Shown: piece by piece, positions 2,324 through 32,052 of the stretch
How positions within the stretch are numbered: the stretch's first letter is position 1
How the letters are laid out: every line of letters starts with the position of its first letter
NCBI GenBank assembly: GCA_002781985.1
Contig: PFGP01000125.1
Location: forward strand, 1 to 36,595
Length of the DNA: 36,595 nt
Source of the DNA: Candidatus Taenaricola geysiri
GTDB lineage: Bacteria; Omnitrophota; Gorgyraeia; Taenaricolales; Taenaricolaceae
Direction: 5' to 3'
Notes under the pieces: model-generated
Told to the model about the DNA's origin: nothing
What the model saw: only the letters and a program-made list of their open reading frames with translations
Databases searched by the model: none
Program-made: the position numbers and the translations under genes

Positions 2324-2424
2324 GGAAGTCCCTCGTCCCGAGACGCCATAACGCAAATAGTTGCGGCGAGGGACTCGGGACAAATTACAACTTAGAAAAA
2401 CTATGGTAATTTGGAGGCAAACGA
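2324..2424 (+). repeat. Two-hairpin intergenic leader element, copy 1 (extended-stem variant)
   Basis: GGAAG, then H1 at 2328-2381 (GTCCC/TC/GTCCC ... GGGAC/TC/GGGAC). H2 is CAAATTAC (2381-2388) paired with GTAATTTG (2406-2413). GGAGG is at 2413-2417 and the ATG at 2425. Confidence 0.8.
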
Positions 2425-3885
2425 ATGGATTTTAAAGGCAAGGTTTTGATAATTGGTTTCGGATCAGTGGCAAGATGTACTCTTCCAATTCTTCTTAAAC
2501 ATATTGATATCCCGTGTAAAAATATTACGGTTATAGATTTCGCCGACAAGCGCGATGATCTGAAATCCTGGATAGAAAAAGGGGTGAAGTATTTTCAGAC
2601 AAGGATTACGCCCGGCAATCTGGCCGAGGAATTATCTAAACACGTTTCCAGCGGCGGGCTTATTATAGATTTGGCATGGAATATAAGCTGCGATGAAATA
2701 GTAACATGGTGCCATGACAATAATGTGCTTTATGCAAATACCTCTGTTGAAGAATGGGATCCGTATCGGGATATTGATAAAAAGGACCCGTATAAAAAGT
2801 CGCTTTATTTCCGCCAGATACTTTTGAGAAAAATGTTTTCAAAATTCAGCAGGCCTGCAACGACGTTTGTGGTAGATCACGGAGCAAACCCGGGCCTGAT
2901 TTCACATTTTACCAAAAAAGGCCTTGTTGATATAGCCGAAAAGGCGGTCAAGGACTCGGATACCGGCAAGAAAACACAAAAGGCGCTGGAGGATTTATTA
3001 AAACAGGGGCATTCAGACGAGAAATATGCGCGCCTTGCAATGGAATTGGGCGTTAAGGTTATACATTGCAGCGAACGCGATACCCAGATAACCGACAAGC
3101 CGAAAGAGGTGGATGAATTTGTCGGCACATGGTCTATAGAGGGTTTAAGGGAAGAGGGCACAGCACCAGCAGAGCTTGGATGGGGCACGCATGAGAAAAA
3201 GCTCCCACGTTACGCGCATGTGCCTAAAGAGGGCCCGAGAAACCAGATTTTTCTTTCCCAGATGGGGATGAATACATGGGTGCGTTCATGGGTGCCAAAT
3301 TTTGATATAATAGGTATGGTGATAAGGCATGCGGAGGCATTTAGTATTTCCAACAGGCTTACGGTATGGAAAGGCAAAAAAGCGGTTTACAGGCCAACCG
3401 TGCATTATGCTTACATGCCTTGTGATGAAACATTAGTTTCTTTGTATGAGCTCAGGGCCAAAAATTACCAGTTACAGCCCAAGCTGCGCATTATGAGCGA
3501 TGAAATAACAAAGGGCGAGGATATACTGGGCGCTCTTATTATGGGGCACAAATATAATTCCTGGTGGACAGGAAGCATATTGAGCATTGATGAGTCAAGA
3601 AAGATTGTTCCTCATCAGAATGCCACTACAATGCAGGTCGCGACAGGGATGGTTACGGCTGTTATGTGGATGATAGAAAATCCTCACAGGGGTTTTTGCC
3701 TTCCCGATGATTTACCCTATGACTACGTGTTGAAGATAGCAAAACCTTATCTGGGAAAGCTTGTTTCACAGGCGTCGGACTGGACGCCGCTTAAGAATTA
3801 CCGGATTTTTTTCAAGGAAAACCCCAGATCATACCTGGATGAGAAAAATATATGGTGTTTTGATAATTTCCTTTTCAGGGACTAA
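2425..3885 (+). CDS. hss: Homospermidine synthase
   Basis: 486 aa. The N-terminal Rossmann motif (IIGFGSVARCTLP) and the length match bacterial HSS (saccharopine-dehydrogenase-like). An ornithine decarboxylase gene follows 11 nt later. Confidence 0.8.
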   Translation: MDFKGKVLIIGFGSVARCTLPILLKHIDIPCKNITVIDFADKRDDLKSWIEKGVKYFQTRITPGNLAEELSKHVSSGGLIIDLAWNISCDEIVTWCHDNNVLYANTSVEEWDPYRDIDKKDPYKKSLYFRQILLRKMFSKFSRPATTFVVDHGANPGLISHFTKKGLVDIAEKAVKDSDTGKKTQKALEDLLKQGHSDEKYARLAMELGVKVIHCSERDTQITDKPKEVDEFVGTWSIEGLREEGTAPAELGWGTHEKKLPRYAHVPKEGPRNQIFLSQMGMNTWVRSWVPNFDIIGMVIRHAEAFSISNRLTVWKGKKAVYRPTVHYAYMPCDETLVSLYELRAKNYQLQPKLRIMSDEITKGEDILGALIMGHKYNSWWTGSILSIDESRKIVPHQNATTMQVATGMVTAVMWMIENPHRGFCLPDDLPYDYVLKIAKPYLGKLVSQASDWTPLKNYRIFFKENPRSYLDEKNIWCFDNFLFRD

Positions 3886-3896
3886 ACAGGCATATT

Positions 3897-5048
3897 ATGG
3901 CAAAGACTTCGCGAAAATGGCTCAGGCGGCTTGAAAATATGGCGCGCAGGCATAAGACGCCTGTTTTTGTGCTGGATCATGAAAAGATACGCCAGAATTA
4001 TAAAGAGTTTAAAGAGAGCCTGCCCCGCATCCAGGCGTATTATGCCGTAAAGGCTAATTCCAATCCTGAGATAGTCAAAACTCTTTATAAGATGGGCGCC
4101 AGTTTTGATGTAGCGTCGTTTCCTGAATTTATGACAGCGTATCAGAATATAAAGCGCCTTGGCAAAAAAAGGCGGCAGGATTTTATTTGGGACAAGATTA
4201 TTTACGCCAACACTATAAAATGTATCGAAACATTGCGTAAGCTTGACCAGTATAAGCCGCTTGTCACCTATGATAATATTTATGAGCTTAAAAAGATAAA
4301 AAGATACTGCCCGCACGCAGGGCTTGTATTAAGGATAAAGGTGCCAAATACAGGTTCTATGGTGGAACTTTCGTCCAAGTTTGGCGTTGATCCCGGCGAG
4401 GCAGTGGATCTTATACTTGAAAGTTTTAAAGCCGGGCTTGTGGTCGAGGGCATAAGTTTTCATGTGGGAAGCCAGTGCAATAATTTTGAAAATTATATGC
4501 AGGCCCTGCAGCTGTCCGCCTCTATATTAAAAGAAGCAGAGTCCCGAGGGCACAAAATAAATATACTTGATATAGGCGGCGGTTTTCCTGTAAGATATAA
4601 CAGCAAGGCAAAGTCATTTAAAGTGCTTGCCAAGAAATTGAACGCAGAAATTGACCGGCTTTTCCCCAAAACAATAGAGATACTTGCAGAACCCGGCAGA
4701 TTTATGGTGGCAAACGCAGCCACCCTTGTTACCAGGATTATAGGAAAAGCCATCCGGGATTCAAAGATATGCTATTACCTGGATGATGGCGTGTATCATA
4801 CGTTTTCAGGGATAGTTTTTGATCATTGCCAGTATCCTTTAAAGGCATTTAAAGATGGCGAAAAAAAGGTATGCGCGGTTTTTGGTCCTACATGTGACGC
4901 GTTTGATACTATCTCAGTCGCTGAGGCGCTGCCTGAACTTGAGATAGGCGATTATCTTTATGCTGAGAATATCGGCGCCTACAGTATCGCTTCATCAACG
5001 TATTTCAACGGTTTTCCTCCGGCAAAAATAGTCCACATAAACAAATAA
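3897..5048 (+). CDS. Ornithine (Orn/Lys) decarboxylase, PLP fold type III
   Basis: 383 aa with the PLP-lysine motif YYAVKANSNPEIV and the GGGFPV, EPGRFMVA and GPTCDAFD motifs of the Orn/DAP/Arg decarboxylase family. Confidence 0.85.
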   Translation: MAKTSRKWLRRLENMARRHKTPVFVLDHEKIRQNYKEFKESLPRIQAYYAVKANSNPEIVKTLYKMGASFDVASFPEFMTAYQNIKRLGKKRRQDFIWDKIIYANTIKCIETLRKLDQYKPLVTYDNIYELKKIKRYCPHAGLVLRIKVPNTGSMVELSSKFGVDPGEAVDLILESFKAGLVVEGISFHVGSQCNNFENYMQALQLSASILKEAESRGHKINILDIGGGFPVRYNSKAKSFKVLAKKLNAEIDRLFPKTIEILAEPGRFMVANAATLVTRIIGKAIRDSKICYYLDDGVYHTFSGIVFDHCQYPLKAFKDGEKKVCAVFGPTCDAFDTISVAEALPELEIGDYLYAENIGAYSIASSTYFNGFPPAKIVHINK

Positions 5049-5083
5049 AATACGCGTAAATTTTTACAATTTTAAAGATAAAA

Positions 5084-5112
5084 TTGACAACCCCCACGCA
5101 GGCATGTATACT
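5084..5112 (+). promoter_or_regulatory. Sigma-70-type promoter of pit (near-leaderless)
   Basis: TTGACA (5084-5089), a 17-nt spacer, then TATACT (5107-5112). The ATG at 5123 is only 10 nt after the -10 element and there is no SD. Confidence 0.6.
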
Positions 5113-5122
5113 ATAAAATAAT

Positions 5123-6097
5123 ATGCATTTATTTATAATAGCCATAACAATATTGATGGGCATAGCCGTTGGCTGGTCCATAGGGGCCAATGATGCTGCC
5201 AATTCTTTAGGGGTTGCCGTTGGTTCGCGCGTATTGACATTTCGCCAGGCTATCCTTTTAATATGCATATTCGGTTTTTTAGGGGCATATTTTAACGGGG
5301 CGCATGTTATAAAGACCGTAGGTAAAGGCATCGTGCCTTTGGATCAACTTGATAAAAATATAGCATTATATGTGGCTCTTGTGGCGTCTTTTGGCGCATG
5401 CGCGTGGGTAGCGCTTGCAACGCATTGGAAGATGCCTATTTCAACCAGTCATTCTATAGTAGGCGCTGTAGCAGGCGCAGGCCTTGCCGTACACGCGCCT
5501 ATAAGCTGGAAAGTGCTTTTCGATGTTTTTATGTGCTGGATCCTGACGCCTGTGGGCGCGGCAATTATGGGTTTTGTAATATGTATCATCGTTAAAAATA
5601 CATTTTACAGGATAGTGCCGCGAAGGTTCGCGCGCCCGATATTAGTGTTTCTTGTTATAACAAGCGGATGCTATGTTGCCTTTACATGGGGCGCAAATGA
5701 CGTTGCAAATTGCGTAGGCGTGATTTCAGGCGCAGGCATACTTTCCATAAACAGCAGTATTATTTTGGGCATAATGGCAATACTATTTGGAATAATTACA
5801 TTGGGCTATAAGGTTATACAGACAGTTGGTTCTGAAATAACCAACCTTGTGCCTGTTATGGCATTTTCAGCGCAGCTTGCAAGCGCGCTTAATGTTCATA
5901 TATATACTTTGTTTGGAATACCTGTTTCTACAAGCCATTCTATTGTAGGCGCAATATTTGGCGTAGGCATGGTAAGGGGCCTGCGTGTTTTGAATATAAA
6001 GATTCTAAAAAATATAATAATATCGTGGATAGCAACGCCGTTTGTTTCAGGAGTGGTGAGTTTTTCTGTTTTAAAGGGAATAATGTTGTTTAAATAG
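5123..6097 (+). CDS. pit: Inorganic phosphate transporter, PiT (PHO4) family
   Basis: 324 aa, multi-TM, with the duplicated GANDAANS / GANDVANC signature. Confidence 0.9.
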   Translation: MHLFIIAITILMGIAVGWSIGANDAANSLGVAVGSRVLTFRQAILLICIFGFLGAYFNGAHVIKTVGKGIVPLDQLDKNIALYVALVASFGACAWVALATHWKMPISTSHSIVGAVAGAGLAVHAPISWKVLFDVFMCWILTPVGAAIMGFVICIIVKNTFYRIVPRRFARPILVFLVITSGCYVAFTWGANDVANCVGVISGAGILSINSSIILGIMAILFGIITLGYKVIQTVGSEITNLVPVMAFSAQLASALNVHIYTLFGIPVSTSHSIVGAIFGVGMVRGLRVLNIKILKNIIISWIATPFVSGVVSFSVLKGIMLFK

Positions 6098-6206
6098 TCC
6101 CTCGCCGCTAAACGTGATTAGAGGCGGTTCGGGACAAATTTTTGCCGAACACGGCATCCCGTGAACGGGACAAATCGAGATAGCTAGAAAAATTTGGAGG
6201 CGTAAA
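6097..6206 (+). repeat. Two-hairpin intergenic leader element, copy 2 (long form with 27-nt insert)
   Basis: H1 at 6097-6135 overlaps the pit stop codon. The insert at 6144-6170 contains two mutually exclusive small hairpins. H2 is CAAATTTTT (6135-6143) paired with AAAAATTTG (6188-6196). GGAGG is at 6196-6200 and the ATG at 6207. Confidence 0.8.
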
Positions 6207-6875
6207 ATGAAAGAGATGAGAAATATTTTGGGATGGCTGGGCATGGCCGAGGAACACGCTATAATGCAGGATGCGCAAAAACACGTCGACGAAACCTATA
6301 AGACAGTCACGCATTTTTCAGACGCGGTAAACGCGTTTATAAAAGGCGATCTGAATGCAAAGACAGTAGCTATAGAGAAGACCGGTGAAAGCGAACACCT
6401 TGCCGATATATTGCGTTCAAAAATGGTAAGGGAACTTTCAGAAAGCCTTATAGCTCCGCCTGACAGGGAAGACTTTATGCATTTTGTAAATACGCTGGAT
6501 AAGATAGCTGACTGGACAAACGGTTCGGCAAGACTTTTAGGTTTCATTGAAGTAAAACTTTCGGAAGACATCCTGAAAAATATTTTTGTTTCTACTGAGT
6601 TGATCGTGACTTCCATAACAAGATTAAAAGAGGCGATACAGAGTATTATCAAAAATGATTTAAAAAAGGCGCTTACAGATTGTGAAGAAGTGGACCGTAT
6701 TGAACATAATGCCGATGATCAGAAAAGGATATTGATAGGATGTATAATACATGCCAAGCTTGACCCGCCGACATTGCTTTTGAGTTATCAGCTTGCCGAA
6801 TATTTAGAAGGTGTAACAGACAAGATAGAAGACGCGGCTGATTTTATAAAAGTAGTAGCTATAAGGTCCAAATAA
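6207..6875 (+). CDS. DUF47 / PhoU-like phosphate-transport-associated protein
   Basis: A 222-aa helical protein adjacent to PiT, which is the classic PiT-DUF47 gene pair. The assignment rests on context plus general sequence character. Confidence 0.7.
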   Translation: MKEMRNILGWLGMAEEHAIMQDAQKHVDETYKTVTHFSDAVNAFIKGDLNAKTVAIEKTGESEHLADILRSKMVRELSESLIAPPDREDFMHFVNTLDKIADWTNGSARLLGFIEVKLSEDILKNIFVSTELIVTSITRLKEAIQSIIKNDLKKALTDCEEVDRIEHNADDQKRILIGCIIHAKLDPPTLLLSYQLAEYLEGVTDKIEDAADFIKVVAIRSK

Positions 6876-6882
6876 AAAAAAT

Positions 6883-9242: not shown

Positions 9243-9289
9243 GGTGCCAGGCACCGCATTTTAACATATTGTATTTAAAGGAGTTATAG
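9243..9289 (-). repeat. 47-bp palindrome-ended repeat, copy E (inverted), left flank of the RAYT gene
   Basis: GGTGCCAGGCACC (9243-9255), then GCATTTTAA, an 18-nt spacer, and GTTATAG (9283-9289). This is the reverse complement of the TTGTAAC-N18-TTAAAATGC-GGTGCCTGGCACC module with 5/7 matches in the inner heptamer. Confidence 0.75.
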
Positions 9290-9295
9290 CGCAAA

Positions 9296-9949
9296 ATGCC
9301 CAGAAATCCTCGTTTATGTTTTGAAGGTGCATTTTATCATATAACAAGCCGTGGCGACAATAAAGAGAAGATATTTTATAATGAATGGGATAGAAAAGCG
9401 ATGTTTAGTTTATTGAAAGAAGCAAAGAGCAAGTTTTGCTTTAGGTTGCACGCTTATACGTTGATGCAAAATCATTTTCATTTTGTCATTGAAACTTCTG
9501 AGAAAGGGACGATATCGGAAATAATGCATCATATAAATGGAAAATATACAAAACATTTTAATTCTATGCACAAACGCAGCGGCCATCTTTTTCAGGGAAG
9601 ATTTCATGGAGTTTTAATAGACAAAGATAATTATCTTTTGGAAGTAACCAGATATGTACATCTAAATCCTGTCAGGGTAGGGCTAGTTGAACATCCTGAA
9701 GAATACAAGTGGAGCAGTTATAGGCATTATATTGGTTTAGCTAGAAATGATTTCGTGGATAAGGAGTTGATTTTGGATATGATTTCGCCTGACAGATCTA
9801 ATCAGGTTACTATGTATTTAAATTTTACAAAAGAAGGTTTAAAATTAGATTTCAAGAAGTTTAAAGATGGTTTATACAAGGGTGCATTTTCACCAAAAAA
9901 GAAACTAATACCTAATGAGCCAAAATATCAAGAAATCGTTTGTAACTAA
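9296..9949 (+). CDS. REP-associated tyrosine transposase (RAYT) / IS200-like Y1 HUH transposase (COG1943 type)
   Basis: 217 aa with the HUH motif HFHFVIE, then RYVHLNPVRVGLV and YKWSSY (catalytic Tyr region). Confidence 0.85.
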   Translation: MPRNPRLCFEGAFYHITSRGDNKEKIFYNEWDRKAMFSLLKEAKSKFCFRLHAYTLMQNHFHFVIETSEKGTISEIMHHINGKYTKHFNSMHKRSGHLFQGRFHGVLIDKDNYLLEVTRYVHLNPVRVGLVEHPEEYKWSSYRHYIGLARNDFVDKELILDMISPDRSNQVTMYLNFTKEGLKLDFKKFKDGLYKGAFSPKKKLIPNEPKYQEIVCN

Positions 9950-9986
9950 TTCAAAACAAACAACTTATAATGCGGTGCCTGGCACC
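9940..9986 (+). repeat. 47-bp palindrome-ended repeat, copy A, right flank of the RAYT gene
   Basis: TTGTAAC (9940-9946, containing part of the RAYT stop), an 18-nt spacer, TTATAATGC, then GGTGCCTGGCACC (9974-9986). Confidence 0.8.
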
Positions 9987-11888
9987 GTGGGTGGGGAGTT
10001 GAACGCCCAGCAGCTTGAGGTTGTAAGGACTATTGATGGGCCGGTGCTAGTGGTTGCGGGCGCTGGTAGCGGCAAGACCCGCGTAATAGAATACAGGGTG
10101 CTCCATTTTATTCAGAGTGGAATTCAGCCGGAAAATATCCTCTTATTAACTTTTACAAAAAAAGCCGCGCAGCAGATGTTAAGCCGCGCCTCAAGGCATG
10201 ATGTAAGGTGCGGCCTTGTTCACGGCGGCACATTTCATTCTTTTGCCTATAGGATTTTAAAAAAATATTCCGTCCAGTCAGGGTTGGGCGAGTTTTTTAT
10301 AATTGACGAGTCAGACGCTGAAGAGGCCATAAATATATGCTCTGCGAAATTTGACACTAACGGTAAAGATAAGAGATTTCCGCGCAAGGATACATTGCGT
10401 AAGGTGTTCAGCATGGTTGTGAATAAAAATATGAGCGTTGAGGATATTTTGGATAAGGAATACCCTCAATTTTTAAAATATAGTTTTCAGGTAGAAGCGA
10501 TAAGCCAGGAATATAAAAAGTATAAAAAAAGCAAGGGGTACTTAGACTATGACGACCTGCTTGTTTATTTAAGGAATCTGCTTGAGAAAAATAATGACAT
10601 AAGAAAAGAATTGTCAGAGCAGTATAAATATATAATGGTTGACGAATATCAGGATACCAATAAATTGCAGTCGGATATAACATACTTTCTGGCAAGGGAT
10701 CATAAAAATATAATGATAGTAGGCGATGACGCCCAGAGCATATACGGATTCAGGGGCGCATCGCATGAAAATATAATGGATTTTCCAGAAAGATTTCCCG
10801 GATGTAAGATTATAAAATTAGAAACAAATTACCGCAGCCACCAGCCGATACTTGATGTTGCCAATGCGGTGTTGAAGAATATGAAAAACAAATATTCAAA
10901 AGAGCTCTATTCTTACAATAAGGAGCATGGCGACAGGCCTGAGCTTTTATTTTTTACAAATACAAATGCTGAAGCGGGTTGGATGGCGCGCAAGGTAAAA
11001 TCTATGGCAGCTGAGGGCATGGATTTAAAATATCAGGCAGTGCTGTTTCGGTATGCATATATATCCATTCCGCTGCAGCTTGAGTTAAACAGACTAAGAA
11101 TACCGTTTCAGTTATTCGGGGGAATGAAATTTTATGAGACCGCGCATGTGAAGGATGTTTTGGCGCACCTGAAGGCGCTTGTTAATTTTAAAGATGAGCT
11201 TTCATGGCTAAGGATGCTTACTTTGCTTGAAGGCATAGGCCCAAAAACAGCGTCGGGCATAGTGAAAGATATTAACAATGCCAATAATTTTGACGAAGCA
11301 GTGAAAAGTATTTTGTGTTCAGCAAATAGAAAGAAATCGTATTCAACAGCTCTTTTTGAGCTGGTAAATTTTCTAAAAACCGCGCAAGCTGCAGAAGGCA
11401 GCGTGTCAGAGCAGTTTGAGGCATTGCTGGAATATTATAATCCTATCATGCAGTATAAATTTGATGACGCCAGAGATAGGATGAATGATTTAAAGGTGAT
11501 AAAAAGGATATCTGCAGATTATAAGTCAACTCCGGACTTTTTGGCTGATTTTGCCCTTGATTCGCCTGATAAAGGCGCGTTCAGCGGCCATGAAAATATG
11601 CTGACGCTTTCCACCATACATTCAGCCAAGGGCCTTGAGTGGGACGTGGTTTTTTTGATGGGCCTGGTGGAGGGAGTTTTGCCTGTAAGTTTTTCGCTTG
11701 ATGACGAGGATTCGATAGAGGAGGAGCACAGGCTTTTTTACGTGGGCATTACGCGCGCCAAAAAACATCTGTTTCTTTGCGCGCATTATGAAGGTACGAT
11801 GATGGGCCAGAGCCAGTTTAACAGAATATCGCGGTTTGTGGATTCGGAAAATGTTTTGTCAAAGGTTAAGCAAGAAGCTGTATATTAA
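9987..11888 (+). CDS. UvrD/PcrA/Rep-family ATP-dependent DNA helicase
   Basis: Motifs AGAGSGKT, VDEYQDTN, TIHSAKGLEWDVVF and YVGITRAK are present. The ORF is open from the ATG at 9915, but that stretch overlaps the RAYT gene and reads through repeat copy A. The GTG at 9987 or the TTG at 9999 sits just before the conserved LNAQQ..V N-terminus. Confidence 0.88.
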   Translation: MGGELNAQQLEVVRTIDGPVLVVAGAGSGKTRVIEYRVLHFIQSGIQPENILLLTFTKKAAQQMLSRASRHDVRCGLVHGGTFHSFAYRILKKYSVQSGLGEFFIIDESDAEEAINICSAKFDTNGKDKRFPRKDTLRKVFSMVVNKNMSVEDILDKEYPQFLKYSFQVEAISQEYKKYKKSKGYLDYDDLLVYLRNLLEKNNDIRKELSEQYKYIMVDEYQDTNKLQSDITYFLARDHKNIMIVGDDAQSIYGFRGASHENIMDFPERFPGCKIIKLETNYRSHQPILDVANAVLKNMKNKYSKELYSYNKEHGDRPELLFFTNTNAEAGWMARKVKSMAAEGMDLKYQAVLFRYAYISIPLQLELNRLRIPFQLFGGMKFYETAHVKDVLAHLKALVNFKDELSWLRMLTLLEGIGPKTASGIVKDINNANNFDEAVKSILCSANRKKSYSTALFELVNFLKTAQAAEGSVSEQFEALLEYYNPIMQYKFDDARDRMNDLKVIKRISADYKSTPDFLADFALDSPDKGAFSGHENMLTLSTIHSAKGLEWDVVFLMGLVEGVLPVSFSLDDEDSIEEEHRLFYVGITRAKKHLFLCAHYEGTMMGQSQFNRISRFVDSENVLSKVKQEAVY

Positions 11889-11977
11889 GGAAGTCCCTCG
11901 CCGCAAGTTGTGATAGCTGGCGGCTCGGGACGATTTTTCGGACAAAAATATTCTACTGGAAAAATCGGAGGTGAAAT
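11889..11977 (+). repeat. Two-hairpin intergenic leader element, copy 3
   Basis: GGAAG, then H1 at 11893-11931 (GTCCC/TC/GCCGC ... GCGGC/TC/GGGAC). H2 is CGATTTTT (11931-11938) paired with AAAAATCG (11960-11967). GGAGG is at 11967-11971 and the ATG at 11978. Confidence 0.8.
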
Positions 11978-12193: not shown

Positions 12194-12202
12194 ATAATCA
12201 AA

Positions 12203-12290
12203 TAGTGGGGAGGTCGTGAGACGGCCTGAGAGTTTCGATAAATCGGATTACCCTATGAACCTGATCTGGATAATGCCAGCGTAGGAAAAA
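12203..12290 (+). promoter_or_regulatory. TPP (THI-box) riboswitch aptamer
   Basis: Contains GGGGAGG..CTGAGA...ACCCTATGAACCTGATCTGGATAATGCCAGCGTAGGAA, which matches the conserved THI element core. Confidence 0.9.
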
Positions 12291-12307
12291 TAGATAACAT
12301 TAATTTA

Positions 12308-12337
12308 CCCTATGCCAAAATTGGCGTGGGGTTTTTT
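12308..12337 (+). terminator. Riboswitch expression-platform terminator
   Basis: CCCTATGCC (12308-12316) pairs with GGCGTGGGG (12323-12331, two G.U pairs), followed by TTTTTT. Confidence 0.8.
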
Positions 12338-12358: not shown

Positions 12359-13147
12359 GTGAGCGATGCAAAGATAAGCAGGGCGATATTAAGCGAATTT
12401 AACAGTTGGTTTAGTGATTACATTGTTTCAGATGTAATTATTGTAGGCGCAGGCCCGAGCGGGTTGGTTGCAGCAAGGGATTTAGCAAAACAAGGCATTA
12501 AGGTGCTTGTGATAGAGGTTAATAATTATCTTGGTGGCGGTTTCTGGATAGGCGGATATCTTATGAATACGCTTACGTTTCGCTCACCTGCCGAAGAGAT
12601 GCTTGATGAATTAAATATACCTTATAAGAAGACTTTAGACGGCTTGTTAACGGCAGATGGGCCCAATGCATGTTCCAAGCTTATCTCAGCGGCCTGCGAT
12701 GCGGGCGCGAGGATTTTAAACATGACGAAGTTTGATGACGTGGTTTTGAGAGATAAAAGGGTGGAAGGCATTGTTATTAATTGGGCTCCTGTCTCAGCGC
12801 TTCCCAGGCAGATTTCATGTGTTGATCCGATTTCAATAGAGGCAAAGGTTGTTATTGATGCAACCGGGCATGATGCGTATGTTGCAAGGAGCCTGGAGAA
12901 AAAAGGTTTGCTTAAACTTAAAGGCACAGGGGCCATGGATGCCAATACATCAGAGGATTTAATTGTTAATAATACTGGCGAGGTTTACCCTGGATTAATA
13001 GTGGCCGGCATGGCAGTTTCAGCTGTATGGGGTATCCCGCGTATGGGCCCGACATTTGCCGGTATGCTTTATTCGGGTAGAAAGGCGGCAGAGATCACTT
13101 CGCGTATTGTTTTGAAAAACGAGATTCCGGTAGAAAATCAATTGTAA
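12359..13147 (+). CDS. thi4: Thiazole synthase, Thi4 type (archaeal/eukaryotic-like)
   Basis: ISRAIL...DVIIVGAGPSGL (FAD/NAD Rossmann) and VIDATGHDA motifs are present. The start is uncertain. The listed GTG at 12326 lies inside the terminator stem, so the in-frame GTG at 12359 is used here. The well-placed ATG at 12366 is out of frame. Confidence 0.8.
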   Translation: MSDAKISRAILSEFNSWFSDYIVSDVIIVGAGPSGLVAARDLAKQGIKVLVIEVNNYLGGGFWIGGYLMNTLTFRSPAEEMLDELNIPYKKTLDGLLTADGPNACSKLISAACDAGARILNMTKFDDVVLRDKRVEGIVINWAPVSALPRQISCVDPISIEAKVVIDATGHDAYVARSLEKKGLLKLKGTGAMDANTSEDLIVNNTGEVYPGLIVAGMAVSAVWGIPRMGPTFAGMLYSGRKAAEITSRIVLKNEIPVENQL

Positions 13148-13188
13148 CATATTGAAAATAGACAACTTAAAACGCGGTGCCTGGCACC
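13142..13188 (+). repeat. 47-bp palindrome-ended repeat, copy B (solo)
   Basis: TTGTAAC (13142-13148, containing the thi4 stop), an 18-nt spacer, TTAAAACGC, then GGTGCCTGGCACC (13176-13188). Confidence 0.8.
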
Positions 13189-13191
13189 GGT

Positions 13192-13219
13192 AAAAAAGCC
13201 GTTGACAAACGGCTTTTTT
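13192..13219. terminator. Symmetric (bidirectional-type) terminator hairpin overlapping the marR -35 element
   Basis: AAAAAAGCCGTT, a GACA loop, then AACGGCTTTTTT. Confidence 0.65.
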
Positions 13220-19008: not shown

Positions 19009-19025
19009 AAAATACTTTGTATTTT
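19009..19025. promoter_or_regulatory. Inverted repeat AAAATAC-TTT-GTATTTT, copy 1
   Basis: A perfect 7-3-7 palindrome. The 20-nt block at 19007-19026 is repeated exactly at 19076-19095. Confidence 0.3.
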
Positions 19026-19039
19026 TATGCGTTAAAAAA

Positions 19040-19071
19040 GATCCTTCGTCCCAAAAAAGGGGCTCAGGATC
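19040..19071 (+). other. Hairpin with UC/UC internal loop after the RND stop
   Basis: The structure is GATCCT/TC/GTCCC, an AAAAAA loop, then GGGGC/TC/AGGATC. It has the same 2x2 UC/UC internal-loop design as H1 of the leader elements. No T run follows. Confidence 0.4.
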
Positions 19072-19077
19072 AATAAA

Positions 19078-19094
19078 AAAATACTTTGTATTTT
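19078..19094. promoter_or_regulatory. Inverted repeat AAAATAC-TTT-GTATTTT, copy 2, abutting the -35 element
   Basis: The same palindrome as copy 1, ending 4 nt before the TTGACA at 19099. Confidence 0.3.
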
Positions 19095-19098
19095 TTTA

Positions 19099-19127
19099 TT
19101 GACAATATGATACTAATATGGTATCAT
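19099..19127 (+). promoter_or_regulatory. Sigma-70-type promoter upstream of leader-element copy 4
   Basis: TTGACA (19099-19104), a 17-nt spacer, then TATCAT (19122-19127) preceded by TGg. The palindrome ATGATAC-N7-GTATCAT (19107-19127) overlaps the spacer and the -10 element. Confidence 0.6.
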
Positions 19128-19140: not shown

Positions 19141-19226
19141 AAAGTCCCTCGCGACTAAACGAGATAGCTGGTCACTCGGGACAATTTTTTAAGATGTGAT
19201 AACTGGAAAAATTGGAGGTGATTTTT
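19141..19226 (+). repeat. Two-hairpin intergenic leader element, copy 4 (lies downstream of a promoter, so in a 5' UTR)
   Basis: H1 is at 19144-19182 (inner helix GCGAC:GTCAC, one mismatch). H2 is CAATTTTT (19182-19189) paired with AAAAATTG (19207-19214). GGAGG is at 19214-19218 and the ATG at 19227. Confidence 0.8.
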
Positions 19227-19541: not shown

Positions 19542-19645
19542 AGGAAGTCCCTCGTCCCGAGACGCCAGCACATAAAATGCTTGCGGCGAGGGGCTCGGGA
19601 CGAATTTTACTACCCGTGATAGTGGGTAAAATTTGGAGGTGTAAT
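19542..19645 (+). repeat. Two-hairpin intergenic leader element, copy 5 (extended-stem variant)
   Basis: GGAAG, then H1 at 19547-19601. H2 is CGAATTTTA (19601-19609) paired with TAAAATTTG (19627-19635). GGAGG is at 19635-19639 and the ATG at 19646. Confidence 0.8.
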
Positions 19646-21048: not shown

Positions 21049-21074
21049 TAAAGCCGATTTTAGAATATTTTGGT

Positions 21075-21121
21075 TTGTAACTTGTTTAATTTCAATGGGT
21101 TAAAATGCGGTGCCTGGCACC
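21075..21121 (+). repeat. 47-bp palindrome-ended repeat, copy C (solo)
   Basis: TTGTAAC (21075-21081), an 18-nt spacer, TTAAAATGC, then GGTGCCTGGCACC (21109-21121). Confidence 0.8.
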
Positions 21122-21139
21122 GGGAAAGAGAGATAGAAA

Positions 21140-22695: not shown

Positions 22696-22780
22696 GTCCC
22701 TCGTCACTAAACGTGCTATCTGGTGACTCGGGACAAATTTTACAAATCGAGATAGCTGGTAAAATTTGGAGGATTTAACC
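22696..22780 (+). repeat. Two-hairpin intergenic leader element, copy 6 (cleanest exemplar)
   Basis: H1 at 22696-22734 is GTCCC/TC/GTCAC, a 15-nt loop, then GTGAC/TC/GGGAC. H2 is CAAATTTTA (22734-22742) paired with TAAAATTTG (22760-22768). GGAGG is at 22768-22772 and the ATG at 22781. Confidence 0.85.
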
Positions 22781-24833: not shown

Positions 24834-24834
24834 T

Positions 24835-27650: not shown

Positions 27651-27730
27651 GGAAGTTTTTCGTCCCTCGCCACTAAGTGAGATAGCTGGTGGCTCGGGAC
27701 AATTTTTACAAATGAGAGAGGAGGTAAAAA
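27651..27730 (+). repeat. Two-hairpin intergenic leader element, copy 7 (SD in the H2 loop, start codon in the H2 stem)
   Basis: GGAAG, TTTTC, then H1 at 27662-27700 (inner helix GCCAC:GTGGC). H2 is CAATTTTTA (27700-27708) paired with TAAAAATTG (27725-27733). GGAGG at 27720-27724 lies in the loop. The TTG start at 27731 lies in the 3' arm. Confidence 0.75.
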
Positions 27731-27916
27731 TTGAAGGCGAAGGTTGATAAAGATGCATGTATTGGATGTAGTTTGTGTGTTTCTACATGCCCTGAGGTTT
27801 TCAAGATGGATGCCGACAAGGCAGTTGTTATAGGCAATTCTGTTCCCGGTGGCGCAGTGGATTCTGCAAAGCGCGCAGCCGAGGAATGCCCGACTACAGC
27901 GATAGCTGTAGAATAA
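27731..27916 (+). CDS. fdx: Small single-cluster ferredoxin
   Basis: 61 aa with the CIGCSLCVSTCP ... EECP pattern. The TTG start lies 6 nt after GGAGG. Confidence 0.8.
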   Translation: MKAKVDKDACIGCSLCVSTCPEVFKMDADKAVVIGNSVPGGAVDSAKRAAEECPTTAIAVE

Positions 27917-27946
27917 AAGCCAACTTTTTTACTCTTAACATTTTTC

Positions 27947-27975
27947 TTGACAATAAAGCCCCGCAATGTTATATT
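27947..27975 (+). promoter_or_regulatory. Putative promoter of the Arg-rich protein gene
   Basis: TTGACA (27947-27952), a 17-nt spacer, then TATATT (27970-27975). The -10 element lies in the loop of the ferredoxin terminator hairpin. Confidence 0.45.
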
Positions 27976-27995
27976 TAGTTGCGGGGCTTATTGTT
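27957..27995 (+). terminator. Terminator-like hairpin after the ferredoxin gene
   Basis: AGCCCCGCAA (27957-27966) pairs with TTGCGGGGCT (27979-27988), followed by TATTGTT. Confidence 0.55.
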
Positions 27996-28367
27996 ATGGA
28001 AAAAAACTGTGTAATCTGCAATAAAATATTTACGCCTACCAAATACAGGCCACAGGCCCAGGAGGTCTGCTCGGATCCTGTTTGTCAGCACAAAAGACAG
28101 CTCGAAAACATGAAAAGATGGCGCCGTAATAATCCTCATTACTTTAGGCAGGATGAGATAAGAGGCGTTTACTGGAGAGAACTATACCGCCGCAGGATAC
28201 GAAGGTGGCGTAAGGAGCACCCTGAATATTTTAAGAAATACAGGGACAGGTACAAGGCCCAGCACAGGGAATATATGCGTGAATACATGAGAAGATACAG
28301 GAATGTGAAGAAAAGAATGTTGCAGCAGGCAGAGCCGCAGCCGCCAATCAGCGATATTTTGTCTTGA
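27996..28367 (+). CDS. Hypothetical zinc-ribbon plus Arg/Tyr-rich basic repeat protein
   Basis: N-terminal CVIC...C..VC, then repeats of the W/Y-R-x-x-(N/H)P-x-YF type (RWRRNNPHYFRQ, RWRKEHPEYFKKYR, HREYMREYMRRYR). The ATG at 27996 is preferred over 27966, which lies in the hairpin and upstream of the predicted TSS. Confidence 0.5.
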   Translation: MEKNCVICNKIFTPTKYRPQAQEVCSDPVCQHKRQLENMKRWRRNNPHYFRQDEIRGVYWRELYRRRIRRWRKEHPEYFKKYRDRYKAQHREYMREYMRRYRNVKKRMLQQAEPQPPISDILS

Positions 28368-28460
28368 CACTAGTAATATATATATGATAAATTGTAGTAA
28401 AATTAACGCACTAGAATTCCCCCGACAAAATGGCAGAAAGAAAAAGAAAGGAAATTTTCT

Positions 28461-30530
28461 TTGACCAGGCGTGTATTTTTCTTTTTAATCTTTTTGTTGG
28501 CAATAACGCTACCGGCCTTTGCCAGGCCTTCAAGTTCATCTGATTTTCTTATCCTGCTTGATATTACCGCGCAAAATAACCCGGATTCAGCCAGAATAAC
28601 CATATATACAAATAAATTTCTTGAATATGTAGATTACGAGCTTCAGGATGGCTCGGGCGGCATTGTTTTTGACCCTACAGAACCTTTATATGTAAATATA
28701 GAAGGCCTGAATTTTGATAAAAGCGGCATTATCAGCGGAATGAAATTTGCCAAAAGCGCTATCAAGCAGGATGATTTACCCGAGGTGTTGAAGGCGGGTT
28801 TTTACCCGTTGGATTATCTGGTTATAAATTTAAAACTTAAGTCCGGTTACAGGATATCGCAGCGGGCGAATATGATTGTTTTGGATATAGGAAATACTGC
28901 GATGCCGCTGCCTTCAGAATTTGTGCCAAGTTTTACATTAAAGCCTGCGCCTGTGCCAAAAAAAGAGGTTGCTTCAGGAGCAGGTTTGCTGCCGGAAGAT
29001 ATTGCAGCGGAATTTATAAAAACAAAACAAGGCAAAAAACAAGATAAGAAAAAAGAAAAGAAATCAAAAAAGAAACAAGAGCCGTTGGTTGAAAAAGTGT
29101 CCTTGCCGCTCCCGGCTTTAAGCCCGCAAGAGGCCGTGGCAATGGATTTTAAGCGCCTTAGGGAGGAGATTTTATCCAGGTCGCTTTCCGGCAAACCATC
29201 TTTAAAATTGCCGCAAGGCAGAAATGTACTTGGCTTTAATCAGTGCGTTGAAATAGGAACCACTAATTTTCTGCCGCTTGTTATTGCCGAAGAGGAAATG
29301 AGGCTTGGCGATATGAAAATCAATGAAGCCAAGCGCGGGATTTATCCTACAGCCACCGCAAAATATACTACAACAGACGGAGAAACGCTTGGGGTTGAGT
29401 TTACCGAAAAATCTTATGGCATGCAGGTTGAGCAGCCTCTTTATTACGGAGGCCGGCTTAAATTAACATTAAAACAGGCCCAGATAAACCGTCAGGTTGC
29501 CCAGTCGAAATTCGACAAAGCTGAAGCCGATGTGGTGTCAAAGATTACAGAGGCATTTTACGGCCTTGCTACAGCGCAACTTAATCTCGAGGACCAGAAG
29601 GAATTATTCGTAAAATCAAAAGAGATGCTTGCGCTTGCCGAGAAAAAATATAATCAGGACCTTACAACGAAACTGGAGCTGTTAAATGTCCAATCGCAAT
29701 GCAACCAGATAGATTATCAGCTTGCTGTTGCAGCCAAGGATGTTGATATTGCAAAGATAAGCCTTCTTCAGGCAATGGGCACAGACCCTCAGGCTGACAT
29801 TCGAGCCGATATGCCGCTTGATTACGCCGAGAATATTATAGATATTAACAAATGCCTTTTACTTGCATACCAGAACAGGCCTGAGTTGCATATGAATGAA
29901 CTTCTGCGGGAGGCCGCGGAATATGAAGAGAAGATAGCCAGGTCAAAGGATGATTTTAAGGTTGATTTTACAGGATTTGTCGGCCAGTCGGGCGGCGCGT
30001 ACAAAACAGAACCGTTAAATATGGGCAGTGACTGGTATATGGGATTTAAGGCGTCAAAGCCATGGCTTGGCAATACGGGTTCTTATAATTATACGCAGAA
30101 TAAAACAAGCCCTAAATTAGGCCAAAGCACAAGGACAGGAGGTACTAGCCAATCTCTTGAATTCGGCATACTGAATAATATGACGGCTTATTCTGAAAAG
30201 CAGTCCGCCTTGATAAGCAAGCTTAAAGCGGAGAATGAACTTGTTGAAATAGAAAAGGCGATAAACACCGAGGTGCGCGAAACCTACAGCAGCTATGAAA
30301 AAGCTATTATGCAGATACAGAATACGCAGGAGAAGATAAGGTTCAGGCAGGAAGAACTTAATACATTGAAGGCGCAGTCGGAAATAAACGAGGCCGCCTT
30401 GTCGCAGGTGCTTGACGCGATGGTAAAGCTTAATGATGAAAAGGCATTATACCACCAGGCTATAGCAAGCTACAAGACCGCTTTGGCGAATTTAAACAAG
30501 GCAGTGGGGCTGATAGGGTATTTCAACTAA
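28461..30530 (+). CDS. Outer-membrane efflux protein (TolC/OMF family) with a ~270-aa N-terminal extension
   Basis: 689 aa. It has a signal peptide (LPAFA/RP), a beta-rich N-terminal domain (tentatively AMIN-like), a Lys-rich linker (KQGKKQDKKKEKKSKKKQE), then two OEP repeats. Confidence 0.8.
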   Translation: MTRRVFFFLIFLLAITLPAFARPSSSSDFLILLDITAQNNPDSARITIYTNKFLEYVDYELQDGSGGIVFDPTEPLYVNIEGLNFDKSGIISGMKFAKSAIKQDDLPEVLKAGFYPLDYLVINLKLKSGYRISQRANMIVLDIGNTAMPLPSEFVPSFTLKPAPVPKKEVASGAGLLPEDIAAEFIKTKQGKKQDKKKEKKSKKKQEPLVEKVSLPLPALSPQEAVAMDFKRLREEILSRSLSGKPSLKLPQGRNVLGFNQCVEIGTTNFLPLVIAEEEMRLGDMKINEAKRGIYPTATAKYTTTDGETLGVEFTEKSYGMQVEQPLYYGGRLKLTLKQAQINRQVAQSKFDKAEADVVSKITEAFYGLATAQLNLEDQKELFVKSKEMLALAEKKYNQDLTTKLELLNVQSQCNQIDYQLAVAAKDVDIAKISLLQAMGTDPQADIRADMPLDYAENIIDINKCLLLAYQNRPELHMNELLREAAEYEEKIARSKDDFKVDFTGFVGQSGGAYKTEPLNMGSDWYMGFKASKPWLGNTGSYNYTQNKTSPKLGQSTRTGGTSQSLEFGILNNMTAYSEKQSALISKLKAENELVEIEKAINTEVRETYSSYEKAIMQIQNTQEKIRFRQEELNTLKAQSEINEAALSQVLDAMVKLNDEKALYHQAIASYKTALANLNKAVGLIGYFN

Positions 30531-30640
30531 TTCCCTCGCCGCGCCTCGTGATAAGAGGCGGCTCGGGATAAAATTTTGCCGAACACGGCATCCCGTGAAC
30601 GGGACAAATCGAGATTACTGGAAAATTTCAGAGGTGAAAA
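30531..30640 (+). repeat. Two-hairpin intergenic leader element, copy 8 (long form with 27-nt insert)
   Basis: H1 is at 30531-30569 with a degenerate outer helix (TTCCC...GGGAT). The insert at 30578-30605 lies in a 42-nt block identical to copy 2. The SD is GAGG at 30631-30634 and the ATG is at 30641. Confidence 0.75.
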
Positions 30641-31954
30641 ATGGCCGCATTGATAAAAAAAAGATTTAAGGGTTGGGGGGTTGTGCTTATTGTTATTGCC
30701 GCTCTGGTTATTATGTTTGTTGTTTACGCGGCGCCGATAGCAGAGCATTTATGGAAAGTTTTTCCAGGTATCGCAAATTTTTCTTTTGTTTCCAATCTTT
30801 TAAAAGACAGGGTAATACAAAAGTCAGGCGCTCAGTCCGCAGGCCAAGAGCAGGAAGGCGGCGCAGCCGGAGCCGAAGAAAAACAGAGGCCGGTGTCAGT
30901 TATAGTATTTAAAGCGGTAAAAAGCGATTTTGAAGATACTCTTCTAGCCATGGGCACAATAAAGGGCGTCAGAGAAATAGAGCTCAGGTTCGAGGCAAAC
31001 GGCGTTATAGACGCCATTAATTTCAGAGAAGGCGATTTTATAAAAAAAGGCGATGTAGTTGCGGTTTTGAACCAACAGGACGCCATATTAAAACTGGAAT
31101 ATTCGCAATCAAAGCTTAAAACAAGCCAGACGCAGATGCTTACGGCCAAGAAAAAACTTGAGATACATCAGAAGTTATACGAGTTGGGCACCATTATTAA
31201 ATCAAAACTCGAAGAAGTGGCTCTTGAATATGAAAACACAAAAAGCCAGGTGACATCCGCTGAAAAAGAGGTGGCGTTTGCCAAACAGGAAGTGCAAAAG
31301 GCTTATATATCTTCTCCTATTGACGGTATTATCGGCGAGCGCGAGGCAGAGGCAGGCGAATTTGTTACGTCAAACACAAAGATAGCAACTGTTATAGATG
31401 TGTCGAGTGTTTATGCTGAAGTCGGAATTATTGAAAAGGATTTGCAGAAGATAGCCCTGGATATAGAGGCAACAGCTACTGTAGACGCGTATCCTGATGT
31501 GGAATTTAAAGGAAAGATCGATAATATACTTCCTACAATAGAAGGAAAATCAAGAACAATAACCTGCAGGATTAAAATAGATAATCAGGATGGCATGCTT
31601 TTGCCGGGGATGTTTGTGAGGGCGACTATTTTTGTATTTGGCCAGAAAGATGTAATAGTGCTGCCAACCCCGAATAATACACTGCGCGATACGGATAATG
31701 ACGGAAAATTTGATTCTGTTTTTGTGGTTGATCAGGATAACGTCGCGCATCTTAAGCCTGTGGAAATAAGTTATCTTACTACTGATAACGCGGTGGTTGT
31801 TTCGGGGCTTGAAGAGGGCGAGCAGGTTGTTACAGAGGCAAGGGCTGAGCTTAGCGATGGCGCGCCGGTTGAAGTTTTGGAGACGCAGGAGGGGCTTAAG
31901 CCTCAGGAAGAGCTTCCGGGAGCAGGCGGAGAAAAAGAGATGGTGATACAGTAG
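30641..31954 (+). CDS. RND/ABC-type efflux periplasmic adaptor (MFP, HlyD_D23-like)
   Basis: 437 aa with an N-terminal TM anchor, a coiled-coil hairpin and barrel-sandwich and beta-barrel segments (YISSPIDGIIGER, LPGMFVRATI). Confidence 0.85.
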   Translation: MAALIKKRFKGWGVVLIVIAALVIMFVVYAAPIAEHLWKVFPGIANFSFVSNLLKDRVIQKSGAQSAGQEQEGGAAGAEEKQRPVSVIVFKAVKSDFEDTLLAMGTIKGVREIELRFEANGVIDAINFREGDFIKKGDVVAVLNQQDAILKLEYSQSKLKTSQTQMLTAKKKLEIHQKLYELGTIIKSKLEEVALEYENTKSQVTSAEKEVAFAKQEVQKAYISSPIDGIIGEREAEAGEFVTSNTKIATVIDVSSVYAEVGIIEKDLQKIALDIEATATVDAYPDVEFKGKIDNILPTIEGKSRTITCRIKIDNQDGMLLPGMFVRATIFVFGQKDVIVLPTPNNTLRDTDNDGKFDSVFVVDQDNVAHLKPVEISYLTTDNAVVVSGLEEGEQVVTEARAELSDGAPVEVLETQEGLKPQEELPGAGGEKEMVIQ

Positions 31955-32052
31955 CGTAGCTGGAAAAATTTGCCCCTCGCCGCAAAACGCGATTAGAAGC
32001 GGCTCGGGACAATTTTACTAAACGAGATAGCAGGTAAAATCGGAGGTGTAAT
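31955..32052 (+). repeat. Two-hairpin intergenic leader element, copy 9
   Basis: A partial module-2-like TAGCTGGAAAAATTT is followed by H1 at 31972-32010 (GCCCC/TC/GCCGC ... GCGGC/TC/GGGAC). H2 is at 32010-32017 paired with 32035-32042. GGAGG is at 32042-32046 and the ATG at 32053. Confidence 0.75.

Follow-up and report, generated by a model that had tools for sequence, protein, structure and literature searches.

The 36,595-nt stretch of Candidatus Taenaricola geysiri DNA analysed here (contig PFGP01000125.1; its whole length is called the window) carries, in the spaces between its genes, nine same-orientation copies of an element made of two consecutive hairpins, H1 and H2. Strand-specific two-hairpin repeats of this family, ~65-110 nt in length and including the nine copies, are spread through Candidatus Omnitrophota, a large and mostly uncultivated phylum with compact genomes. 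In the T. geysiri metagenome-assembled genome (MAG) roughly one quarter of the gene starts have the element in their leader. The same gene junction can hold a copy in one species and lack it in another, and the H2 end of the copies lies against a GGNGG motif resembling a Shine-Dalgarno sequence (SD). Our preferred interpretation, held at slightly better than even confidence, is that the element is a non-autonomous mobile DNA resembling repetitive extragenic palindromes (REPs) and miniature transposable elements with inverted repeats (MITEs), which would be specific at its right junction for SD-like GGNGG, be transcribed together with its neighbours and be tolerated because it folds out.

A family of covarying two-hairpin repeats

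Both a repeat finder, in which the element appears as families D1, D2, D4-D6 and D9, and a covariance model (R1) recover the nine copies where the initial annotation had placed them. Model R1, a gapless 77-column alignment of 15 copies (14 from other contigs and window copy 4), has 10 pairs in H1 and 8 in H2, and was run on the window unfiltered and on both strands. Its nine best matches are the nine copies, each of them on the + strand, with scores of 91.2 to 36.4 bits and E-values of 1.4e-20 to 2.7e-7, and it adds a tenth, degenerate one; beyond these ten, every window match on either strand has E >= 0.014 and none is credible. In Rfam, searched with permissive filters, no copy has a match at E <= 1, the window's sole matches being a riboswitch and a sub-threshold cspA match, both described below; judging by Rfam and the searchable literature, the element is undescribed. 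The earlier statement that it is recognisable as no named RNA family stands, and the element is not a metabolite riboswitch, which had been called unlikely.

Other contigs and loci were compared with the window and are designated below by L-numbers. A first scan of species-representative genomes used the loose pattern GTCCCTCG N20-40 CTCGGGAC, which is too unspecific, chance matches in high-GC genomes predominating, and the matches listed included six useful Omnitrophota MAGs. In L071 (55% GC) and L121 (38% GC) the succession stop codon-H1-H2-GAGG-ATG is complete and the inner helices differ. With a stricter pattern, in which the outer helix and the H2 start are fixed, metagenome contigs of 32-53% GC gave at least 132 matches, at least 124 of them distinct, in at least 117 loci. 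A looser structural search of the listed loci and the window returned 185 raw H1 matches, corresponding to 155 copies after removal of duplicates and of reverse-strand matches of copies with a long H1. Among these 155 copies H1 measures 37-43 nt in 128 (39 nt in 80) and 53-59 nt in a long subfamily, and an uninterrupted H2 stem of at least 7 bp is found in 143. About 29 copies lie outside the search pattern, six of them window copies, and the remaining ~23 share the same architecture. Model R1 itself has 157 matches in 642 kb of the pattern-picked loci, counted on both strands and with some duplicate contigs. The density in the window is 9-10 copies per 36.6 kb, fairly regularly placed, and the window contig is found again in many groundwater assemblies.

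The architecture of H1 is the one that the initial annotation had described, GUCCC / UC / a 5-bp inner helix, a loop of ~15 nt, then inner helix / UC / GGGAC. Copies 1 and 5 have a longer nested form, GUCCC-UC-GUCCC-GA-G...C-GA-GGGAC-UC-GGGAC, and their reverse strand also matches the H1 pattern because an inverted H1-like helix is nested inside. H2 is an A/T hairpin (arms CGATTTTT/AAAAATCG in copy 3 and CAAATTTTA/TAAAATTTG in copy 6) whose first base is the last base of H1 and whose last base is the first G of GGAGG. This again agrees with the annotated placement, save in copy 7, whose truncated H2 has the SD within the loop and a 3' arm that enters the conserved TTG start of the ferredoxin gene; the L226 orthologue of this copy has a full H2. 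The length of H2 varies from 16 to 90 nt and its loops are conserved only within clades.

The compensatory changes that had been quoted for single copies turned out to be general. In alignment A4 (150 R1-guided matches, 143 of them distinct), which is fitted to the model and in which the outer helix is fixed by the search pattern, standard pairs occupy 97.8% of the cells of the 143 distinct copies against 80.3% in column shuffles, changes on both sides occur in 17 of the 18 pairs, and double changes are found in 422 cells where 110 are expected. Covariation above chance, on which the initial annotation had staked its proposal, is thus present. When the partners are slid by 1-3 columns, pairing falls to 27-68%. 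The three central pairs of the inner helix take all four Watson-Crick types with 2-4 unpaired cells each, and in species whose GC content ranges over 32-55% the UC/UC internal loop hardly varies (97-98% invariant). As to the cells outside Watson-Crick pairing, 24 are G.U and 26 are A.C among 2492 cells, and in the pairs left free by the pattern 11 are G.U and 18 are A.C beside 903 Watson-Crick cells. Helices selected as RNA normally accept G.U much better than A.C; a mismatch spectrum symmetric between the strands, like this one, would be expected if pairing is maintained at the DNA level or if recently copied units decay neutrally.

Minimum free energy folding of the nine window copies predicts H1 and H2 cleanly in copies 3 and 7 and largely in copies 2, 5 and 6, and the best predicted fold of copies 1, 4, 8 and 9 pairs the CCCUC of H1 with the SD. 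The folding z-scores range from +0.56 to -4.35.

Junctions, empty sites and orientation

At least seven orthologous slots, identified by comparison of nucleotide and protein flanks among the loci, are filled by the element in one species and empty in another, and in every pair the empty site already has the stop codon and the SD. At the slot of copy 8 the window reads TAA / element / AGAGGTGAAAAATG (slashes mark the junctions), and the empty counterparts read TAG / AGGTGACTAAAAAATG in L155 (TAG / AGGTGA) and TAA / GGAG in L226. Likewise, L162 is filled where L169 is empty with TAA / AGGAGG, and L190 is filled where L163 is empty with TAA-gtttta-AGGAGG. Since the SD pre-exists in the empty sites, it is a flank and lies outside the element. 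The initial annotation had counted it as the third part of the module and was mistaken in this; the spacing that it had given, GGAGG 6-8 nt before the start codon in eight of the nine copies and GAGG in copy 8, is correct. On its right side the element always meets GGAGG directly, also where the empty site has a spacer of 6-28 nt; on its left side, the filled/empty pairs show 0-15 nt between the stop codon and the element. The stop-to-H1 distance is -1 to 15 nt with a mode of 5. No target-site duplication is seen in the seven or more filled/empty pairs. A semi-conserved AAGG(T/A)A tail upstream of H1 was considered as a candidate duplication and ruled out, as it is missing at tRNA-adjacent copies and at several filled sites.

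The element had also been said to fill exactly the space from stop codon to start codon. This is the case for copies 2, 3, 5, 6, 7 and 8, and not for copies 1 and 4, which do not directly follow a stop codon. In the case of copy 9, the 17 nt at 31955-31971 (CGTAGCTGGAAAAATTT), which had been included in its extent, look like the relic tail of an earlier H2. The exact fill arises largely because the genome has almost no spacer between stop codon and SD, so that any viable insert looks that way; in empty sites the two are often nearly in contact. Indeed, window junctions that have no repeat, riboswitch or promoter-like site mostly measure -17 to +13 nt, and up to 26 nt, and all window gaps of at least 80 nt but one contain the element, a repeat of another family (D3, see below), a riboswitch or a promoter-like site; the exceptional gap, 93 nt from orf133 to OEP, holds only a promoter-like site.

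Before protein genes, GGNGG falls in the first 8 nt, with the last two H2 bases included in the count, in 87 of 101 copies. The H2 end also lies within 0-2 nt of the mature 5' end of sense tRNAs, where the right flank is G-rich, and abuts tmRNA (L180, L189, L244) and RNase P RNA (L207); Rfam confirms the RNase P RNA at L207 384-729 and the tmRNA at L180 1883-2273. At tRNA 3' ends the abutting copies are reversed, again with the H2 end within 0-2 nt, and the motif, which is there the complement of tRNA C71C72-N73-C74C75, is GGNGG in 11 of 15 copies and some SD-like motif in 14 of 15. Y/GGNGG to the right of H2 is the feature common to all contexts, and a junction rule which is valid on both strands, for RNA genes and SDs alike, is most simply an insertion-site preference.

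The single orientation on which the initial annotation had relied is borne out at protein genes: of the copies there, the 82 with enough flank (2.5 kb or more) for GC skew to be scored are without exception sense and placed on the G-rich strand. The copies 3' of a tRNA are on the C-rich strand in 12 of 12 cases; hence the tRNA is normally oriented and the element reversed. Some tRNAs are bracketed (H1>H2>tRNA<H2<H1), and head-to-head doublets 16-35 nt apart are found between the tRNAs of an array. Replication alone as the determinant of orientation is ruled out by tRNAs flanked by adjacent copies of both orientations. In L225, a scan for stop-free frames places one copy across a 1090-codon stop-free antisense frame, and this copy may be intragenic. 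A group I intron (RF00028, 69 bits; L204 608-819, - strand) was noted near an element copy on a 2.2-kb Omnitrophota-like contig.

Proposed mobility and its alternatives

We infer that mobility is the cause of the presence/absence polymorphism and that GGNGG acts as an insertion target rather than as a selective filter. H1, with its GTCCC, TC/TC mismatch loop and freely covarying inner helix, would be the conserved recognition hairpin, and the element would be gained and lost precisely, with no target duplication, its H2 end inserting immediately 5' of an SD-like GGNGG. Landing on GGNGG would give it the direction of the downstream gene and make it abut tRNA, tmRNA and RNase P RNA at their 5' ends, and reversed copies would arise at tRNA 3' ends because the complement of such an end reads GG-N-GG. 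The element would be co-transcribed with its neighbours and may also stabilise transcript ends. As the hairpins are flush with the element ends, the insert could fold out, leave stop codon and SD adjacent, and be nearly harmless. The initial annotation had proposed an evolved expression cassette; mobile DNA of the REP or MITE kind is a better fit, given the abutment on RNA genes, the reversed copies, the polymorphism and the lack of G.U tolerance.

Copying and turnover can be followed within and between slots. A two-hairpin module of 28 nt (GCCGAACACGGCATCCCGTGAACGGGAC) stands at one fixed point of H2, and the copies that have it differ in inner helix and H2 loop and lie at unrelated loci of several species; in the window it is present in copy 2, in the H2 loop, and in copy 8, and a third copy lies downstream of the window. 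From this distribution it behaves like an insert within the insert, or like a recombination cassette. The long-H1 subfamily is likewise scattered over loci, and tandem dimers of the element occur in L130 and L232. At the slot of copy 3, L219 has the inner helix GCGAC:GTCGC where the window has GCCGC:GCGGC, the H2 loops are unalignable, and the upstream open reading frame (ORF) of L219 runs into H1 and stops in the H1 loop; at the slot of copy 7, the window and L226 hold different subfamilies. L247, a relative with hss...RAYT-UvrD synteny (RAYT, REP-associated tyrosine transposase), has no canonical element copy in 20.6 kb. What occupies its stop-to-SD slots is an unrelated palindromic family of ~85 nt (TGTCATCCTGAGCGAAGCGAAGGATC...GATCCTTCAGTCGCC...CCTTCAGGATGACA), the 3' half of which has a TC-loop hairpin design like that of H1, and the tenth window copy resembles that half.

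Two types of RAYT gene were found in the loci, each with repeats of its own. The RAYT gene of the window is flanked by inverted GGTGCC-W-GGCACC hairpins (9243, 9974) of the D3 family, a repeat of ~63 nt (TTGTAAC...TTAAAACGCGGTGCCTGGCACCG) which also fills stop-to-start gaps. A D3-flanked RAYT gene is present in L247 as well, as a 75%-identical syntenic orthologue with a compensated stem, and in L249. By its arrangement, D3 with the window RAYT is a classical REPtron for D3 and not for the two-hairpin element. A gene for a UvrD/PcrA/Rep-family helicase comes directly after the RAYT gene (window 9296-11888; L247 10001-12588), with the downstream D3 REP between or overlapping the two; the pairing is syntenic in two species and not evident in L249. 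HUH enzymes often partner such helicases, and by analogy a functional link between RAYT and helicase is conceivable. The second RAYT-like gene lies at L002 6028-6722, ~3 kb upstream of the window start, and its family is flanked by inverted GGGGACGGTTC repeats in the four genomes of L002, L250, L251 and L252. This TIRYT-like family is widespread in Omnitrophota, the GGGGACGGTTC inverted repeats always flanking it, and RHS/YD-repeat toxin loci adjoin the gene in L250 and L251, as they do a related RAYT-like gene in L143. The arrangement resembles the 'TIRYT' and GGGGWSAS motif of Di Nocera et al. (PMC3733652).

Several observations weigh against mobile DNA. No transposase is linked to the element, the two RAYT-type families being flanked by other repeats at all eight loci, and no autonomous parent was found in the loci examined, in which only tRNAs are bracketed by inverted copies. 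Near-identical strains show no insertion polymorphism, L001-L006 and L126-L129 carrying the same copies; an apparent 90-nt difference in L002 is a run of N. Furthermore, over ~115 nt the element copies of L222 and L228 do not differ at all, against an identity of 84-88% in coding flanks, and the copy at tRNA-Val has an identical H1 in L235 and L201 next to a diverged spacer. Such conservation suggests constraint on the locus, or else homogenisation by conversion or re-insertion, and the level of pairing reported above, in spite of very diverse inner helices, would not be expected of decaying junk. The sample was ascertained by a pattern that fixes the outer helix and the H2 start, with few copies (~29) outside it. 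Finally, selection on the transcript could equally explain the invariably sense orientation at protein genes.

A tentative and rather unlikely alternative, which is the view of the initial annotation, is a host-selected cis-acting RNA 'punctuation' whose hairpins are kept for their action on the transcript and which could coexist with a mobile origin. H1 would shield the upstream 3' end or the mRNA 5' end and H2 would insulate or present the SD; in a variant, a conserved RNase or RNA-binding protein would recognise GUCCC-UC...UC-GGGAC and so define RNA ends, those of tRNA precursors included. Besides the sense orientation in all 82 protein-gene contexts, it is favoured by the location of copies, always in transcribed spacers or 5' untranslated regions (UTRs), by the strong covariation and nearly invariant UC/UC loop, and by orthologous copies that are conserved as well as coding flanks or better, with compensatory changes at the same sites. 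Moreover, the pairing of CCCUC with the SD in several predicted folds would allow a coupling-type regulation, and leader and trailer copies around a tRNA would be mutually complementary, much like a processing stalk. However, the element is dispensable: related species use the same junctions without it and the syntenic L247 lacks the family. The reversed copies at tRNA 3' ends give a different RNA, with GA/GA loops, at the same DNA junction, G.U pairs are not tolerated, H2 varies widely in length with loops conserved only within clades, and the folding z-scores are modest. If the element is used by the host after all, it would represent punctuation of a generic kind, a signal in mRNA and in tRNA precursors that a protein recognises.

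Also unlikely, in our estimation, is that the element homes to SD-like GGNGG, its targets including tRNA 3' ends read on the complementary strand and the G-rich sequence with which tRNA, tmRNA and RNase P RNA genes begin, and that it has by now become a generic structured leader throughout the phylum. The homing guide would maybe be its own anti-SD-like CCCUC/CUC in the conserved UC/UC loop, and Omnitrophota transcripts and tRNA precursors would tolerate the element as a leader or exploit it for end definition. We know of no described prokaryotic mobile element with homing to SD-like motifs as its target choice. If true, homing would be a new principle of target selection and a new way for selfish DNA to enter translation-initiation regions, and would offer a natural experiment on structured RNA tolerated at ribosome-binding sites.

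A role as DNA-level host site, a chromosomal hairpin that would serve gyrase, a nucleoid protein or some factor of replication or recombination as a binding or structural site and whose orientation would follow replication, appears very improbable. Similar roles have been proposed for the REPs and bacterial interspersed mosaic elements (BIMEs) of E. coli, and the strand-symmetric mismatches, the strictly Watson-Crick pairing, the placement of all protein-gene copies on the leading (G-rich) strand and the high, fairly regular density would be in line with one. Against it, both orientations are adjacent around tRNAs, the GGNGG junction specificity would have no obvious meaning, the family is absent from the close relative L247, and the TC/TC mismatch makes the two strands unlike.

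Hardly credible is a leaky intrinsic terminator, such as the initial annotation had put forward, or an attenuator, with H1 and the U run ending part of the transcripts and tuning operon polarity: H1 is G+C-rich, has U4-6 within 1-3 nt and directly follows stop codons, but its loop is at least 15 nt, 1-3 purines separate it from the U run, which also serves as the H2 5' arm, the + strand scan made no call at H1, canonical terminator-like hairpins with proper U tracts stand elsewhere (1594-1624, 12307-12332), a promoter-like site comes shortly before copy 4 and probably before copy 1, and copies are found inside a presumed efflux operon (8 and 9) or before tRNA, tmRNA and RNase P RNA.

To judge from the sites around it, the element is neither a promoter nor a usual terminator. 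A promoter-like site of near-consensus sigma-70 type, TTGACA-17-TATCAT, lies at 19099-19127, and copy 4 begins ~8-10 nt after the predicted transcription start. Copy 1 also belongs to a 5' UTR, probably 5-12 nt from the predicted transcript 5' end; upstream of it come a hairpin resembling a terminator and a weaker promoter-like stretch read by eye, and in L132 the element likewise follows a promoter-like site. At such places H1 would be a 5'-proximal hairpin. Upstream of copies 5-9 there is no strong promoter. The succession OEP - copy 8 - MFP - copy 9 - TPR - D3 - RND looks like one efflux operon, and no promoter-like site was found between its OEP, MFP and RND genes. The H2 3' arm TAAAAT was considered as a -10 box and ruled out: with an H2 of 16-90 nt there is no fixed -35/-10 geometry, and a start there would delete the SD or cut into the tRNA.

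The coordinates of the copies and of the other features are collected in Table 1. Copy 1 has H1 at 2328-2381 (nested UC/UC and GA/GA) and H2 at 2381-2413, with GGAGG at 2413-2417 and the hss ATG at 2425, and copy 2 lies between the PHO4 stop codon and the SD of the PhoU_div/DUF47 gene. The tenth copy has the RND stop codon (19007) upstream and the 19099 promoter-like site downstream. Between these two points a small A/T palindrome, AAAAATACTTTGTATTTTT, occurs twice (19009-19027, 19077-19097), its second occurrence being the H2-like hairpin of the degenerate tenth copy.

Table 1. Positions of the element copies, of the 28-nt module and of other repeats and genes (window coordinates unless a locus is named)
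Feature	Position	Strand	Remarks
Copy 1	2324..2424	+	long-H1 subfamily, GGAAG tail; 53.9 bits, E 1.5e-11
Copy 2	6097..6206	+	H1 6097-6135; 41.9 bits for the H1 part
Copy 3	11889..11977	+	GGAAG tail, H1 11893-11931; between UvrD and tautomerase genes; 71.8 bits
Tenth copy, degenerate	19041..19108	+	ATCCT-TC-GTCCC-AAAAAA-GGGGC-TC-AGGAT, then 14-bp A/T hairpin; 21.2 bits, E 1.3e-3
Copy 4	19141..19226	+	H1 19144-19182; 5' UTR of YHS-like gene; 91.2 bits
Copy 5	19542..19645	+	long-H1 subfamily, H1 19547-19601; before 27-codon ORF; 43 bits
Copy 6	22696..22780	+	H1 22696-22734, right after TGA stop; before SOR gene; 84.6 bits
Copy 7	27651..27730	+	GGAAG and TTTTTC spacer, then H1 27662-27700; 76 bits
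Copy 8	30531..30640	+	TTCCC...GGGAT variant, 28-nt module in H2; between OEP and MFP
Copy 9	31955..32052	+	H1 31972-32010, GCCCC variant; before TPR gene; 74.6 bits
28-nt module GCCGAACACGGCATCCCGTGAACGGGAC	6144-6171, 30578-30605; L127 21865-21892; L152, L160, L171, L179, L201, L223		almost invariant
~85-nt palindromic repeat	L247 113-215, 4658-4740, 7397-7480, 12578-12680		
RAYT gene	9296-9949		NF047646, 91 bits against a cut-off of 80
D3 REPtron	9243-9995		further D3 copies 13135-13197, 21068-21130, 32734-32796 (hairpins 13176, 21109, 32775)

All called genes of the window are on the + strand except the Dus gene (228-1190), and the GC skew is +0.16 (G 8857, C 6376); the window therefore lies on one replichore, with transcription and replication co-oriented almost completely. 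A consensus scan of the window gives a perfect TTGACA-16-TATAAT at 1237 and at 13202. The first of these promoters (1237-1264) precedes a cold-shock gene which is followed by the strong terminator at 1594-1624, and a sub-threshold match to the cspA thermoregulator (1251-1627; 55.5 bits against a gathering threshold of 78) spans this gene. The tautomerase gene preceded by copy 3 stands directly before a thiamine pyrophosphate (TPP) riboswitch (RF00059, 66 bits) at 12196-12304, which has its own terminator hairpin, the one at 12307-12332, and lies upstream of thi4.

In practical terms, the family is a strong taxonomic marker. In groundwater metagenomes it gives rise to breaks in assemblies and to false calls of a 'conserved RNA motif', and its design of two flush hairpins could serve as a model for intercistronic spacers that insulate themselves.

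Relation to known repeats and transposons

The element ends in GTCCC... and ...AAAWTY and has no GTTRRRY core of the kind found in integron attC sites. A gene-cassette array differs in addition, since several housekeeping genes lie between the element copies and copies abut tRNA, tmRNA and RNase P RNA.

Among MITEs, the Correia elements of Neisseria, the ERIC/IRU of enterobacteria and the pneumococcal RUP, BOX and SPRITE are co-transcribed. The element shares with what is generally known of these families a length of ~100 nt, hundreds of copies, an intergenic location, hairpins in the mRNA and presence/absence polymorphism between relatives, and orientation-dependent effects on the transcript would be expected as well. 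However, its inverted repeats are internal to each hairpin, H1 and H2 separately, and not at the unit termini, it has no target-site duplication, and no related full-length insertion sequence was found among the loci. To our knowledge none of those families has been described as strictly adjoining an SD-like motif and tRNA ends.

Mycobacterial interspersed repetitive units (MIRUs) also occupy intercistronic gaps of operons, oriented like the genes and touching the upstream stop codon and the downstream start region. They are tandem 46-101-bp units with short ORFs for translational coupling and with no two-hairpin palindromes, whereas the element is structured, mostly single and also flanks RNA genes.

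The likeness to REPs, REPINs and BIMEs is closer in form. H1 is a short imperfect palindrome of ~39 nt with a conserved mismatch, in high copy, extragenic and within transcription units; the element has subfamilies with complementary stem changes and occurs as singletons, doublets and tandem dimers, and the genome encodes RAYT-type genes and the D3 REPtron. Composite units of a REP plus an unrelated stem-loop, described in Pseudomonas (PMC3733652), are a further likeness. In most GTAG-tagged REP families the terminal tag is present in more than 90% of the members (Di Nocera et al. 2013, PMC3733652). Of the tetranucleotides at the start of H1, GTAG is the commonest with 30 of 155 copies (19%), followed by GAAG with 23, the rest being varied, and it is missing from tRNA-adjacent copies; it is thus far from a conserved tag, and no cognate RAYT was found in the loci examined, both RAYT types there being flanked by other repeats. 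On these sequence features, membership in the GTAG-REP superfamily is not established. Moreover, the element differs from REPs in its obligatory second A/T hairpin, in its place, which is directly 5' of the next gene and flush with GGNGG where that of REPs is simply downstream of ORFs, and in its phylum-wide spread, a REP being confined to one species or genus.

In the IS200/IS605 family and in palindrome-associated transposable elements, as known from IS608 and ISDra2, mismatched hairpins are recognised strand-specifically and elements are gained and lost precisely with no target duplication; IS608 and ISDra2 insert beside a short specific sequence, and one end is always at the target. The miniature derivatives have subterminal hairpins to which a Y1 TnpA binds, and they insert on the lagging-strand template, 3' of a fixed tetra- or pentanucleotide. 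The element departs from these in its two dissimilar hairpins, in the lack, among the loci, of a TnpA-type gene with such ends, and, compared with IS608, in a junction side that would make the active strand the opposite of the one expected from the lagging-template rule. By analogy, the likeness would be a mechanistic one only, with which the Y/GGNGG junction and insertion free of duplication would be compatible.

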